Of a stretch of 64,000 nt of DNA, positions 13,106 through 59,436 are shown piece by piece (position 1 is the first letter of the stretch; the number at the start of each line of letters is the position of its first letter). The notes under the pieces are model-generated. The model made no database searches. It saw nothing but the letters and a program-made list of their open reading frames with translations, and was not told where the DNA came from. The position numbers and the translations under genes are program-made. The stretch is from positions 110,627 to 174,626 of IMG/VR virus record IMGVR_UViG_3300023048_000001. The stretch is one strand, 5' to 3'. The stretch is from a virus. Its lineage: Duplodnaviria; Caudoviricetes.

Positions 13106-13145
13106 GGTTTGACAGGAAGTTATAAAACATCTAATATTTGTCTCG

Positions 13146-13273
13146 TGGTCAACAACATGTAACTCACCGCTAGGGCGGATATATTCACCAGTAATATATG
13201 AAGGTGCGATCCCTTGAGACAGCGTTAGACGTTCTATATGAGGGTGCGATTCCTTCCTGTTGTTGTGAAGCCA
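13146..13273 (+). ncRNA. tRNA-like RNA with two T-arms
   Basis: Promoter TTGACA-N17-TAATAT at 13109; closing stem CAACAACA/TGTTGTTG; AAGG-TGCGATC-CCTT and GAGGG-TGCGATT-CCTTC. Confidence 0.55.
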
Positions 13274-13382
13274 AAGTTACGGTGAAAAGTGATGCATAAG
13301 CCAAGCGTGCGTGTGCAAACATCTGATCCATTTTTCTAGAGAATGAAATCTAGCCGTAGCGGTACTAAATTTAGAATAATAT

Positions 13383-13467
13383 GCCACTATGGCGGAATAG
13401 GTAGACGCAGCAGACTTAAAATCTGCCGCCCTTGGGCGTCCGGGTTCGATTCCCGGTGGTGGTACCA
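13383..13467 (+). tRNA. tRNA-Leu(TAA)
   Basis: Class II cloverleaf, loop CT-TAA-AA, CCA. Confidence 0.95.
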
Positions 13468-13484
13468 TATTATTCAAACAGTTT

Positions 13485-13612
13485 GATCCCTTAGCTCAGT
13501 GGTCTGATGGAAGAACAATCATTCTTAGTGTAATCAGAATGACCTTCGGAAGTCTTAGAGCGGAGAACTCTAAATCCTCGCGTCGTGGGTTCGAATCCCA
13601 CAGGGATCGCCA
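13485..13612 (+). tRNA. amber-suppressor-type tRNA (CTA) with 52-nt D-loop insertion
   Basis: Acceptor GATCCCT/AGGGATC-G-CCA, D-stem GCTC/GAGC separated by the insertion, loop CT-CTA-AA (13570-72), perfect T-arm. Confidence 0.8.
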
Positions 13613-13746
13613 AATTGATGTAGTTGCAGTGAGACACACTCCTGTAATTTAAGTAGGCAAGAATGCAGTGACTTAATACTTCTTTTTAGTGTGTATAACA
13701 CAAAAGCCCTTGACGATTGTTAAGGGCTTTCTTTTTGGAAAATATA

Positions 13747-27322: not shown

Positions 27323-28170
27323 CGGGCTGAGAATAGACCCTGACACGTTGATACTTTAGTTTGGATTATGGCATCTTGCGGATGCTTTCCCACTTTTCCA
27401 CTACAACCATCCTTCCGAATGCATCATAGTATATCAACATAGCAGCCTTATTTAAGTGGTGGCATTTCCACTGTCACCGTAACCTATTCGGCATGTCCTA
27501 TTCAGTCTGCCTTGCGAGCAGCAAAGGGTTCGACCCCATCCTTGCAATTCTTTACCAACATTCATCGGCCTTGCGAGCTTCCGAATGACTCTATTGTCTT
27601 ACGACTAGAGCATTATGCTATTTTCAGTTACGACCGAATCCGTCTTTGCGTTTTTTCAAGGTTGGATTTGAACCAACGTATGATCGTTTAAGAGACGATT
27701 GCTTATCCACTAAGCTACTAGTTATCCCACTAAGGTCGAGCGGATTCATAGGTCCATACCCTTTTGGGGTACAAAATTCTATCCGACCTCATCTGCTTCT
27801 CACCCGCTAAGGTTACACTCGCAGTTCGTTTCACGACTCTTTCAAGCCATTAACAATGTATAAACGCATTCGTCCGCTAAGACTCACACCCTCATACTAC
27901 CAATTCATCATCCACTGGTTCAACGTTAGACCGGCTAGAGGTTTCTATTCCTCTCATCACTCACCGATTGGCCTGTGATGGTTTTAACCGCATTGAATTC
28001 CAATATATCTCCGAAAGCTTCCGAAGCCAGAGCGTTCCACTCTGTGATATGTTGGCTTTTATAAACGAGTCCATTTTCATGGTGGGACGCTGGTAGGCGC
28101 ATTCCCGTTTGACACCTCACGGTATCTTATCTCTCCCTCATAACCCTTTCGAATTATGAGGTACTACACA
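27323..28170 (-). ncRNA. giant structured ncRNA, GOLLD-like
   Basis: ~850 nt without a credible ORF, own promoter, many GNRA-capped stems, embedded tRNA, located in a tRNA cluster; family call from memory of GOLLD architecture. Confidence 0.65.
27654..27724 (-). tRNA. embedded tRNA-Lys(CTT)-like domain with disrupted acceptor stem
   Basis: D-arm GCTT/AAGC, ATCGT-CTCTTAA-ACGAT, GTTGG-TTCAAAT-CCAAC; no good acceptor stem or CCA. Confidence 0.7.
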
Positions 28171-36404: not shown

Positions 36405-36482
36405 TGGTGGCCAGAGGTGGATTCGACCCACCATCTACCGGTTAAAATACCGGTGATTTTGAACCGCTTAAACTATCCGGCC
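36405..36482 (-). tRNA. Lys-like tRNA with 8-nt anticodon loop
   Basis: GGCCGGA/TCTGGCC-A-CCA; ACCGG-TATTTTAA-CCGGT; T-loop GTCGAAT. Confidence 0.7.
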
Positions 36483-39221: not shown

Positions 39222-39318
39222 TGATGCTAGGAAGAAGGGATTCGAACCCTTGGTTTGATGTTATCGCACATCCGCTCTTTAAGGCGGAACACTTTAATCC
39301 TCTCGGTCACTTCCCGCA
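39222..39318 (-). ncRNA. Ser-body tRNA-like RNA, 8-nt loop, bulged acceptor
   Basis: TCCGC-CTTAAAGA-GCGGA, long variable arm, AAGGG-TTCGAAT-CCCTT. Confidence 0.6.
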
Positions 39319-41863: not shown

Positions 41864-43000
41864 TTATTCGGTTTCTGTTAGTTCGGGATCGTCGCCAATT
41901 CCGAACTCCTTATAATGCTTGATCATCCATGTCTTGTAGTCGTTCTCCTTCCCAAGGTAAAGGTTCATCGCAAGGCTGAAATACAGACGGTCTAGCTCTT
42001 TCTGTCCAGCAATCGCATAATCCTTTCTCTCTAGATCACTATTTGAATTATAGAACCCAACAACATACTTGTCAATATTGCGATAAATTGCCTTGACCTT
42101 GAGTTCCATTTCGTCAATGAGTTTGAGCATATATTCATCATACGAGAAGTTAGCACGGGCATCATCGTGGCCTTCGTTCACTACCACAATGAAGCGCTTC
42201 TTAGGTGAGTTAATATCATCCTTAAGATTGTGTAGTGAACAATACCAGTCAGTCTTGTGCTTCGTTAGAACACCCTCAACACCAATGATGTAGCCCTCTA
42301 CTCCCGTCTTTGCTGGAATTGAATCAACAAATGCTGGAACATCATCAACCTTATAGCTCTTTACCAAATAATCAAGAACAAGTGGATCAAATGAGACCAT
42401 TGTCATTACGACTTCATTATATGCCAGTACTTTACCATCATCACGATCACGAACATGGAGAACAGTCAGCTTATCTTCCTGATAAGGAAGAACAATACGG
42501 TGTACCGGCGAAGTCCATTCCAAAGAAACAGAGAATTTAGCCTGTTCCATGTATTCTAAATATTTTAGCAATCTATCATTTTCGCCATTGAACAAAAATT
42601 CCATGGCAGCATTTGCCTGCTCTGAAGCTAGCGATGTTTTGCTCTTCAGATATGTGTTTCCATGGATCATGTAAGTGGTCATAATGCTACCATCCATCTT
42701 ATCCATGACAATATCTGCCTTGGAGAAGTCGATGTCCATAACCAAAGGATTTTCCTTAAAATTAAAGAATTTTCGGGGTGGCAGGGAAGCCAGACGCTTC
42801 ATACGTCCATCTTCCATTTCAAACATGATACCACGAGCCTCAAGAGCCGAAGGCTTCAGGAAGTCGCTATAGGAAGCTAGACGATAGTTGAACACACGGA
42901 AGGTAACACCTTCCATCTGATGTTCTACGATATAAAATGGTGAGTCAGGAGCATGAATAAGCTCCATCAACTCATCATATAGAGTTGATTCATAATGCAT
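41864..43000 (-). CDS. rnlA: RNA ligase 1 (T4 Rnl1 family)
   Basis: FNYRLASYSDF, EARGIMFE, KFFN, motif I KMDGS, LKSK, EGY, KTDWY. Confidence 0.92.
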   Translation of the reverse strand: MHYESTLYDELMELIHAPDSPFYIVEHQMEGVTFRVFNYRLASYSDFLKPSALEARGIMFEMEDGRMKRLASLPPRKFFNFKENPLVMDIDFSKADIVMDKMDGSIMTTYMIHGNTYLKSKTSLASEQANAAMEFLFNGENDRLLKYLEYMEQAKFSVSLEWTSPVHRIVLPYQEDKLTVLHVRDRDDGKVLAYNEVVMTMVSFDPLVLDYLVKSYKVDDVPAFVDSIPAKTGVEGYIIGVEGVLTKHKTDWYCSLHNLKDDINSPKKRFIVVVNEGHDDARANFSYDEYMLKLIDEMELKVKAIYRNIDKYVVGFYNSNSDLERKDYAIAGQKELDRLYFSLAMNLYLGKENDYKTWMIKHYKEFGIGDDPELTETE

Positions 43001-44738: not shown

Positions 44739-44746
44739 AAAACTTT

Positions 44747-44871
44747 GCTTTCGGAAGGATTCGAACCTTCTTGTCCATTCCTCAGGATAAGCTCAGCCTT
44801 AACAATTATGTTCCACGGAATCGAACCGTGAGCCTTATCTTTTCGGGTCGGTCCCCTAGAGTTTCGAAAGC
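44747..44871 (-). ncRNA. tRNA-like RNA with two T-arms
   Basis: GCTTTCG/CGAAAGC; inner CACGG-TTCGATT-CCGTG inside GATAAG/CTTATC; outer GAAGG-TTCGAAT-CCTTC. Confidence 0.7.
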
Positions 44872-44877
44872 ATAAAT

Positions 44878-44996
44878 TGGCAGATGTGGATGGATTCGAA
44901 CCACCGACAGCTATGTCATATTGTCCATTCCTATACGGGAGGACTCAACATTATGCACCTCTCCACGAGGCCACTCTTCCACTGAGTTACACATCT
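44878..44996 (-). ncRNA. expanded tRNA-like RNA (119 nt)
   Basis: AGATGTG/CACATCT-G-CCA, canonical D and T arms, 5-nt anticodon loop, ~48-nt variable hairpin. Confidence 0.75.
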
Positions 44997-55503: not shown

Positions 55504-56469
55504 TCAGTCAATCTTGTTACATTCGGTCAACCAGTACTGGCGTGCAGTCTGCATAACCTGACCCTGAACACCTCTCCAATCAAATCCACTAGCTGCGATA
55601 GTCTCAAGTTCTTCCTTAAGAATATCATGGGCAATCCATTTCAAATAATCACCAGTCCCATTTGGTAGGATAGGTGTTTCCTGCTCTTTCATTGCCATAA
55701 CACCCTGTTCAAGACGCCATAGAGGAAGAATTTCTTCAACGAGTTCCTTGATTGATGCAAGCTTCTGATCATCGATCTTGATCTTCTGGCCCTTTGTTTT
55801 ATCATTACCCTTGTGAAGCAAACCCTTTGTCTTAAACCAAAGGTCTGAGATTTCAGGATGCTCAACACATTCCCACACGATCCCCTCACCAACACCTTCA
55901 GGAGCGCCACGGAAAGTCGCCCATGGGCAGTTCTCTTCAACTGCTAGAGTAAGGTTAGAAAGAATCTCTGAGGCTGGCTCAGGCGATAGGAAGTCCACAG
56001 TTACCGTGTAGGTGGGAATCTGGTAAATGTTGAATACCTTGTTCTCGTTATCAAATAGATCACGAGGAAGTGGCTGGTACTCGCCATTAACTTTTACCTT
56101 AAAGAGAACCAAATGCTTGTCAAGGTTGACGAGAGCAACAGACTTCTGGATACCGGAGCCACACCACTCACCGTATAGAGTCACATCAGCATCAGCCGGA
56201 AACCCAGCAAATAGTTTCTCAACAGCTTCCTTATGGCTTTCAACGAAAAATGCAAAGCCATAGTTATCGGATTCAATACTGAGGATACGTTCACGCGACT
56301 GTGCTTGTAGCTTACCCGAGGATGTGCGACGAATGCCTGCATTACTACCATGGAGTTTCACGGTACCTTCAAAGGTAAGTGTTGGGAACGGCTGTCCACG
56401 GTTGTTTGAAAATTTACGAACCTTAGAAACGGTGTGTTTGAAAGATTCAATAGAAGAAAACTTTTCCAT
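55504..56469 (-). CDS. RNA ligase 2 family (Rnl2-like)
   Basis: Motif I VKLHGSN, QSRER, YGEWCG, GEGIVW, FKTK. Confidence 0.85.
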   Translation of the reverse strand: MEKFSSIESFKHTVSKVRKFSNNRGQPFPTLTFEGTVKLHGSNAGIRRTSSGKLQAQSRERILSIESDNYGFAFFVESHKEAVEKLFAGFPADADVTLYGEWCGSGIQKSVALVNLDKHLVLFKVKVNGEYQPLPRDLFDNENKVFNIYQIPTYTVTVDFLSPEPASEILSNLTLAVEENCPWATFRGAPEGVGEGIVWECVEHPEISDLWFKTKGLLHKGNDKTKGQKIKIDDQKLASIKELVEEILPLWRLEQGVMAMKEQETPILPNGTGDYLKWIAHDILKEELETIAASGFDWRGVQGQVMQTARQYWLTECNKID

Positions 56470-59309: not shown

Positions 59310-59436
59310 TGGCGTTGTGTTCCTGAATCGAACAGGATTCACCCTCACAAATTGAGGGGATTCTAGCTACTAATCTTTTCGACCAATGTTTGGTAGGGGT
59401 ACTAGGATGTTTGCTTTGCCATTAAACTAACACAAC
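59310..59436 (-). ncRNA. expanded tRNA-like RNA (127 nt)
   Basis: GTTGTGT/ACACAAC-G-CCA, D-arm GTTT-AATGGC-AAAGC, T-arm TCCTG-TTCGATT-CAGGA, ~70-nt replaced centre. Confidence 0.75.

Follow-up and report, generated by a model that had tools for sequence, protein, structure and literature searches.

The window, by which we mean the whole 64,000-nt stretch of DNA analysed here, forms the final 64 kb of a 174,626-bp viral contig from IMG/VR. It contains a 128-nt gene for a tRNA with a CUA anticodon, hereafter tRNA(CUA), in which 52 nt interrupt the D-loop (Table 1). The anatomy of the gene was read directly from the letters. The acceptor stem GATCCCT/AGGGATC was paired in all seven positions, its 5′ strand with 13602-13608, and was followed by U8 and A9. 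All four pairs of the D-stem (GCTC/GAGC) were present, with A14 and G18G19 lying 5′ of the insert and A21 lying 3′ of it. After G26 came an anticodon stem (GAGAA/TCCTC) with four of five pairs, the sole mismatch being A30-C40, which closes a canonical 7-nt loop, CTCTAAA, with U33, A37 and the anticodon CTA at 13570-13572. The variable loop had 5 nt and the stem of the T arm (GTGGG-TTCGAAT-CCCAC) was fully paired (5/5). The discriminator was G73, and the 3′ CCA was encoded in the gene.

With the insert, the D-loop measures 60 nt (13498-13557), against 7–11 nt in a canonical elongator tRNA. The motif GTCT was present at both insert junctions as a 4-nt direct repeat, so the boundary of the insert may slide by up to 4 nt.

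ARAGORN, with default settings, listed 14 tRNAs in the window, and the tRNA(CUA) gene was not among them. The Rfam tRNA model (RF00005) gave no match to the gene even at E ≤ 10, with either 141 or 401 nt searched. The single D-loop insertion accounts for this invisibility to both tools. ARAGORN reported a tRNA(cta) once ~52 nt were deleted. In a systematic trial-deletion scan it proved permissive and returned further readings as well, and its calls after deletion were therefore not counted as evidence.

Uninterrupted relatives in huge phages

A pattern scan of viral contigs, in which the start of the D-arm and the CTCTAAA loop were demanded, retrieved 29 uninterrupted viral tRNA(CUA) genes, many of them on contigs of 300–530 kb. 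Huge phages commonly carry this type of tRNA body, with the D-arm GCTCAGTGG..AGAGCGG, the loop CTCTAAA and the T arm GTGGG/CCCAC. Exact removal of the 52 nt from our gene gave the D-arm AGTGGTTAGAGCGG, every letter of which is shared with three of the relatives (L212, L209 and L198). Without the insert, the tRNA was identical to uninterrupted relatives in up to 64 of 76 positions, and to L212 in a run of 23 nt from the variable loop through the T arm. We used 25 of the uninterrupted phage genes to build a covariance model (model R1), which matched 13549-13609 with 42.1 bits (E 2e-11), without the displaced 5′ part. Because of this match, and because the D-arm of the relatives reappears once the 52 nt are taken out, we conclude from the sequence that this is a genuine amber-suppressor-type tRNA gene carrying a 52-nt insertion. 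The first-pass annotation, which had read a CTA tRNA with a 52-nt D-loop insertion here, is thereby borne out.

None of the 29 uninterrupted relatives has the insert, nor does it occur in 19 of the huge-phage records to which they belong. An orthologue with the insert was found neither by three DNA patterns, run against viral and metagenome sequences, nor by three neighbouring proteins, and the same patterns and proteins gave no close relative of this genome region. Among the sequences searched, the insert is specific to one lineage, and since no orthologue carries it, there is no sign of selection on it. The first-pass annotation had looked to homologues for a conserved CTA and a conserved insert. 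The CTA was indeed shared by the relatives, partly by construction because CTCTAAA was part of the pattern, whereas the insert was found in none.

The relative L212 belongs to a distant, complete phage (G020) of 516,805 bp with 57 tRNAs, which shares 12 ORFs with our soil phage at 23–43% identity. It uses the standard code, with TAG as 83 of 571 stops. In its uninterrupted tRNA(CUA) copy, the acceptor stem contained two U-U mismatches and the CCA was missing, so selection on such tRNA(CUA) genes is possibly weak. The same genome encoded a tRNA-Lys(CUU) of 91 nt (477842-477932, minus strand) and a tRNA-Lys(UUU) of 85 nt (478446-478530, minus strand), in each of which the extra arm is long, an unusual feature for Lys.

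Phage genome and use of TAG

CheckV rated completeness of the contig at ~50%, which puts the probable size of the phage genome near 350 kb. The phage was a myovirus with a T4-like family B DNA polymerase and a G + C content of 40.7%, and its GMP reductase was closest to the versions of Xanthomonas and Stenotrophomonas jumbo phages. Among sequencing runs, the locus occurred in one DNA run, from a leaf-litter metagenome that is probably the source sample, and in no RNA runs.

The genes read normally in code 11 and TAG was rare, as had been stated from the letters alone. The longest ORFs (up to 1890 aa) were intact and did not lengthen when TAG was read through. TAG was the rarest stop and closed 10 of 154 long ORFs; for crude genes the count was 16 of 228. 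Within the 174-kb contig, about half of the genome, we saw no recoding to code 15 (TAG = Gln). A search for TAG-interrupted genes, which had been suggested as a check, returned eight TAG-joined frames in the 174 kb. All eight either overlapped opposite-strand genes with a better codon score or were without family support. Thus, no TAG-interrupted gene in the contig gives the suppressor an obvious job.

Operon context and other tRNA-like RNAs

The tRNA-Leu(UAA) gene ends 17 nt upstream of the tRNA(CUA) gene, and the two are probably co-transcribed. A candidate promoter lies upstream and a terminator-like hairpin closes the operon (Table 1).

Table 1 Positions of the tRNA(CUA) gene, its parts and related features in the window, and of tRNA genes with an insert at the same D-loop site in other sequences.
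Feature	Sequence	Position	Strand	Remarks
tRNA(CUA) gene, 128 nt	Window	13485-13612	+	Direct reading of the sequence
tRNA 5′ part (acceptor strand, U8 A9, D-stem GCTC, A14-U20 including G18G19)	Window	13485-13503	+	Direct reading
Insertion, 52 nt, in the variable (beta) D-loop segment	Window	13504-13555	+	Between U20 and A21
tRNA 3′ part (U, A21, D-stem 3′ strand, G26, anticodon arm, variable loop, T arm, acceptor strand, G73, CCA)	Window	13556-13612	+	Model R1 match, direct reading
Candidate promoter-like site, TTGACA-17-TAATAT	Window	13109-13137	+	Consensus scan, 10/12 matches; number of sites in the region no higher than in shuffles
tRNA-Leu(UAA)	Window	13383-13467	+	ARAGORN; Rfam tRNA 57.1 bits
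Intrinsic-terminator-like hairpin closing the operon	Window	13703-13740	+	12-pair stem, then T-rich tail
Rnl1-like RNA ligase	Window	41864-43000	-	tRNA-specific C-terminal domain
Rnl2-like RNA ligase	Window	55504-56469	-	
tRNA-Asn(GTT)	L005	2152-2262	+	Viral contig
tRNA-Lys(TTT)	L010	11810-11922	-	Viral contig
tRNA-Phe(GAA)	L145	6501-6621	+	Viral contig (provirus record)
tRNA-Gly(CCC)	L147	13236-13345	-	Viral contig; same as L170
tRNA-Gly(CCC)	L170	2268-2377	+	Viral contig; same as L147
tRNA-Gly(CCC)	L163	395-503	-	Viral contig
tRNA-Gly(CCC)	L151	7763-7875	-	Added later to the Gly(CCC) family
tRNA-Ile(TAT)	L177	1964-2187	-	Two tandem copies, giant-virus MAG
tRNA, anticodon GCT	L055	4312-4439	+	Terriglobales MAG
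tRNA, anticodon ACT	L129	1297-1417	+	Genome collection

At the start of the operon (13144-13382, plus strand, ~240 nt) we recognized two T-arm-like hairpins, GAAGG-TGCGATC-CCTTG and GAGGG-TGCGATT-CCTTC, and no recognisable tRNA; model R1 gave a weak match at 13185-13264 (9.7 bits). Further tRNA-like RNAs were found elsewhere in the window, all on the minus strand: (i) a full-length GOLLD RNA (RF02032, 201.8 bits) at 27324-27791, with an embedded tRNA-like match at 27653-27724; (ii) four oversized tRNA-shaped genes of 119–153 nt, at 59310-59436, 44878-44996, 44743-44871 and 60-212, with perfect acceptor and T arms and rebuilt interiors; and (iii) two tRNAs called by ARAGORN, at 39226-39316 and 36405-36482, with irregular anticodon loops of four bases (‘taaa’) and two bases (‘tt’), respectively. 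From the oversized genes, the one at 44878-44996 can be read as a GGA (Ser-type) tRNA with a variable arm of ~50 nt (Rfam tRNA 38.9 bits), and the one at 44743-44871 had two T-arm-like hairpins.

Several oversized tRNA-shaped genes with rebuilt interiors, a GOLLD RNA, two RNA ligases and an operon that opens with a two-T-arm RNA are all features that would suit a non-decoding role for tRNA(CUA). The RNA would then mimic a tRNA and engage a tRNA-binding enzyme with its extra arm as a handle, joining the large set of rebuilt tRNA-like RNAs of this phage. The proposed targets are a host defence nuclease, a modification enzyme, a synthetase or the RNA-repair enzymes of the phage. We regard such mimicry as unlikely. 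Unlike the oversized RNAs, tRNA(CUA) keeps the canonical 7-nt anticodon loop of an ordinary suppressor family, and no partner protein was found. The phage gave no match to Ro60/TROVE (PF05731), and the best match to YrlA (RF02553), located elsewhere in the genome, reached 16.7 bits against a gathering score of 69.

Phage T4 has two stable RNAs, C and D (rnaC and rnaD), in its tRNA cluster, and YrlA/Y RNAs carry tRNA-like modules; none of these has a canonical anticodon loop. Like rnaC and rnaD, tRNA(CUA) is an oversized tRNA-shaped RNA among phage tRNAs, beside RNA-repair genes. It differs from them and from YrlA in having an intact decoding arm.

Folding and nature of the insert

In the predicted minimum free energy structure, the cloverleaf was preserved and the insert formed a side arm. 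Both this structure and the ensemble predicted an irregular hairpin of ~14 bp, built from U20 (13503) plus the insert. Its outer helix (13503-13507/13546-13550) was followed by two pairs (13509-13510/13543-13544), an 8-nt bulge (13511-13518), an inner helix (13519-13525/13536-13542) and an apical loop (13526-13535). On the 3′ side, a single-stranded linker of 7 nt (13551-13557) was predicted. The hairpin begins directly at U20, without a 5′ linker, and by this prediction it could disturb the G18G19 elbow.

The first-pass annotation had also proposed two exclusive folds of the insert, and with them a switchable suppressor. Both sets of helices do exist. With the cloverleaf enforced, the first fold had -33.4 kcal/mol and ensemble pair probabilities >0.9, and the second -27.4 kcal/mol and a pair probability of ~0. 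The second fold thus lies 6 kcal/mol above the first and is practically unpopulated. A switch has no support here, and we rejected the two-state model on both energy and ensemble. On its own, the insert did not exceed shuffled sequence in stability (z = 0.19).

With respect to its nature, the insert gave no Rfam family match at E ≤ 10, including group I and II introns, hammerhead, twister, pistol and hatchet, and the earlier remark that 52 nt do not suffice for a group I or II intron stands. Group I introns in bacterial and phage tRNAs have at least 200 nt, lie in the anticodon loop, match Rfam and hide the genes from tRNA finders. The insert resembles them in that it interrupts a tRNA gene and hides it from such tools, and differs in its length of 52 nt, its place in the D-loop and its lack of an Rfam match. 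No second copy was present in the 174 kb or in the 19 huge-phage records with related tRNAs. On this single-copy status, a mobile element or repeat was rejected.

Several other origins and roles were considered and dismissed. Local alignment of the insert with the gene's own anticodon arm or with tRNA-Leu scored at the mean of shuffles, and the insert was not taken as a decayed duplicate of either. GAAGTCT-TAG resembles GATCCCT-TAG, the true 5′ end, in four of seven positions outside the common TAG, which was not significant. The loops of the arm, with 10 nt (6 nt in the second fold), are unlike a 7-nt anticodon loop, and the arm was not considered a spare one. The apical loop starts with TAG (13526-13528, plus strand), complementary to the tRNA's own CUA, with four potential pairs including A37-U. 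For this pairing with the anticodon the chance expectation is ~12%, the feature is missing in the analogues described below, and the pairing was rejected.

D-loop arms at the same site in other tRNAs

We scanned viral contigs and, for prokaryotes, one genome per species for tRNAs with 30–65 extra bases right after G18G19. The far 5′ strand had to pair with the 3′ acceptor strand, and ARAGORN had to find no ordinary tRNA inside. Among the 50 candidates, 39 had a complete tRNA downstream of a 5′ tRNA fragment, and 11 were single tRNAs with a D-loop insert. These 11 were the tRNA(CUA) gene and ten others, viral or bacterial, with sense anticodons (Table 1).

In the 39 fragment-plus-tRNA matches (genome loci L015 to L134, e.g., L021, L042 and L075), the complete tRNA began 30–60 nt after the fragment, which comprised the acceptor strand and half of the D-arm. 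Many of the matches listed came from MAGs of Patescibacteria/Saccharibacteria and DPANN. These loci are probably scars of elements inserting into tRNA genes.

The analogues had a common layout: GG-U, a hairpin, a single-stranded linker of 5–9 nt and the D-stem, with the remaining cloverleaf canonical. By its predicted fold, tRNA(CUA) has the same layout, with the hairpin at 13503-13550 and the linker at 13551-13557. Across the Gly(CCC) family (L147, L151, L163 and L170), all 11 pairs of the arm were paired in every sequence (100%), with three compensatory double changes. This is as well paired as the canonical stems of the same tRNAs, the four sequences being effectively two lineages. Because the Gly(CCC) arm covaries, such arms can persist in presumably decoding tRNAs. 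Removal of the hairpin only would leave the analogues with D-loops of ~15 nt, and for this reason a retained arm with flexible linkers fits them better than an excised intron. As the scan covered only positions right after G18G19, it does not mark this site as special.

There were differences between tRNA(CUA) and its analogues. The analogue arms were mostly shorter (~30–50 nt vs 52 nt), more regular and on sense-codon tRNAs. The arm of tRNA(CUA) is a singleton on a suppressor, weakly stable and bulged, whereas that of Gly(CCC) is conserved with covariation. Neither full-text searches of the literature nor a 2020 review of non-canonical tRNAs yielded a description of a D-loop hairpin insertion in bacterial or phage tRNAs.

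Proposed excision of the insert and the RNA ligases

The first-pass annotation had noted that the phage encodes two RNA ligases, which is correct (Table 1), and had considered protein-assisted excision conceivable, for which we found little. RNA ligases are frequent in tRNA-rich jumbo phages, and the presence of two does not by itself imply splicing. For excision, a phage or host endonuclease would have to cut the RNA and the Rnl1-like or Rnl2-like ligase reseal it to a 76-nt suppressor, which could tie suppression to the expression of the repair enzymes. Taking out the 52 nt does leave a perfect D-loop, identical to that of the relatives. The Rnl1-like ligase has the tRNA-specific C-terminal domain, and an Rnl2-like gene was also present in one of five contigs with analogues.

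Several observations nevertheless make excision very unlikely. On inspection, a bulge-helix-bulge (BHB) motif was not formed at the junctions, where the predicted pairing was a 5-bp helix plus a 7-nt single strand and not 3-4-3. EndA (PF01974) and RtcB (PF01139) were absent from the 174-kb contig, which is ~50% of the genome. No ribozyme or intron family was recognized in the insert, which was also not conserved in the relatives. The ~15-nt D-loops that hairpin removal would leave in the analogues are a further point against excision. Of the five analogue contigs searched, all of them fragments, four showed no RNA ligase and none showed RtcB. To our knowledge, bacteria and phages have no pathway that would excise a segment of this kind.

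The closest precedents for a short D-loop segment whose precise removal restores the tRNA are tRNA introns of archaea and red algae that lie at non-canonical positions, the D-loop among them, where EndA cuts at the BHB and RtcB joins the ends (PMC4090602, PMC3241643). In this feature tRNA(CUA) is like them; it differs in that no BHB, EndA or RtcB was found in the 174 kb, and in being carried by a bacterial myovirus.

A possible retained fifth arm or a decaying gene

The explanation that we favour, tentatively and at somewhat less than even chance, is that the tRNA, 128 nt long, has kept a lineage-specific insert as its fifth arm and is perhaps still charged and able to read UAG. Here the retention of the arm, the charging and the suppression are all inferred from the letters. 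tRNA(CUA) would share with tRNA-Leu(UAA) a transcript that starts at the promoter-like site (13109) and stops at the terminator (13703), and the ends of the tRNA would be processed like those of any other. The 52 nt would have entered between U20 and A21, in a D-loop segment of variable length among tRNAs, and been left in. The mature RNA would then have 128 nt and five arms, the fifth being the irregular ~14-bp hairpin with its 7-nt linker. It would keep the elbow between G18G19 and the T-loop, the acceptor end and the anticodon arm and, if charged, would read UAG at some level.

The likeliest amino acid for such charging is Gln or Lys, judging from G73, C34, U35 and the Lys-like body; G73, C34 and U35 belong to the tRNA identity rules behind this assignment. 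Isotype assignment via nearest neighbours was discarded, being ambiguous (Met, Arg and Lys) with a biased comparison set. A CTCTAAA loop with A31-U39 is a classic context for efficient amber suppression, as in E. coli supF. Reading of UAG would cost little, because this standard-code phage ends only ~7% of its genes in TAG.

A serious rival to the retained arm is an inactivated gene, in which a dispensable suppressor took up the 52-nt insertion and is now dead, yet too young to show further decay. The origin might be, for example, a replication or recombination accident that left GTCT at the junctions, and the 4-nt direct repeat there fits such an event. The insert is unique to this lineage, in comparison with 29 uninterrupted relatives, and its fold is not unusually stable. 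The A30-C40 mismatch, the lack of a TAG-interrupted gene in need of a suppressor, and the tRNA(CUA) of L212/G020 with two acceptor mismatches and no CCA all point in the same direction. However, the acceptor stem (7/7), T-stem (5/5), D-stem (4/4), G18G19, U33, A37 and CCA are intact, the gene sits in a compact operon reaching from a promoter-like site to a terminator, and the insert is neither a repeat nor a known mobile element. In addition, the D-loop position of the insertion is the very one at which arms are kept in other tRNAs. Weighing these, we consider inactivation rather unlikely.

Far less probable, and in our view barely credible, is an extension of the retained fifth arm to a functional control or identity module that gates suppression. 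Gating would come about either through removal or remodelling of the arm by the RNA-repair enzymes of the phage, giving stage-specific read-through of UAG, or through docking of the arm on a partner or on its own anticodon. If true, this would be a new form of genetic-code regulation through a structural insert in a tRNA.

Suppressor tRNAs hidden by their structure

tRNA(CUA) is like the tRNA-Sup-CTA of huge and recoded phages in its CUA within a CTCTAAA loop and in the body shared with 29 viral genes. Unlike the recoded phages, this genome keeps TAG as a stop, and the 52-nt D-loop insertion occurs in none of the relatives. Borges et al. found suppressor tRNAs also in standard-code relatives of recoded phages, and proposed that, after a stop codon has turned rare, orphan suppressors are a first step in recoding (10.1101/2021.08.26.457843). 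In the same study, suppressor tRNAs were found in only 35–40% of recoded phages, and the authors suspected that non-canonical structures hide the rest (10.1101/2021.08.26.457843).

The biological pay-off of the tRNA(CUA) gene is uncertain, and the intron and switch readings are unsupported. Suppressor tRNAs are how phages begin to rewrite the genetic code, and the tRNA(CUA) gene is a concrete case of a suppressor-type tRNA hidden from annotation by its structure. Together with its ten analogues, it suggests that the tRNA fold has a site at which a fifth arm is tolerated. If these armed RNAs are charged and used by the ribosome, they would matter for tRNA annotation, for the tolerance of the tRNA elbow and for tRNA engineering, where handles or aptamers could be placed at this site.
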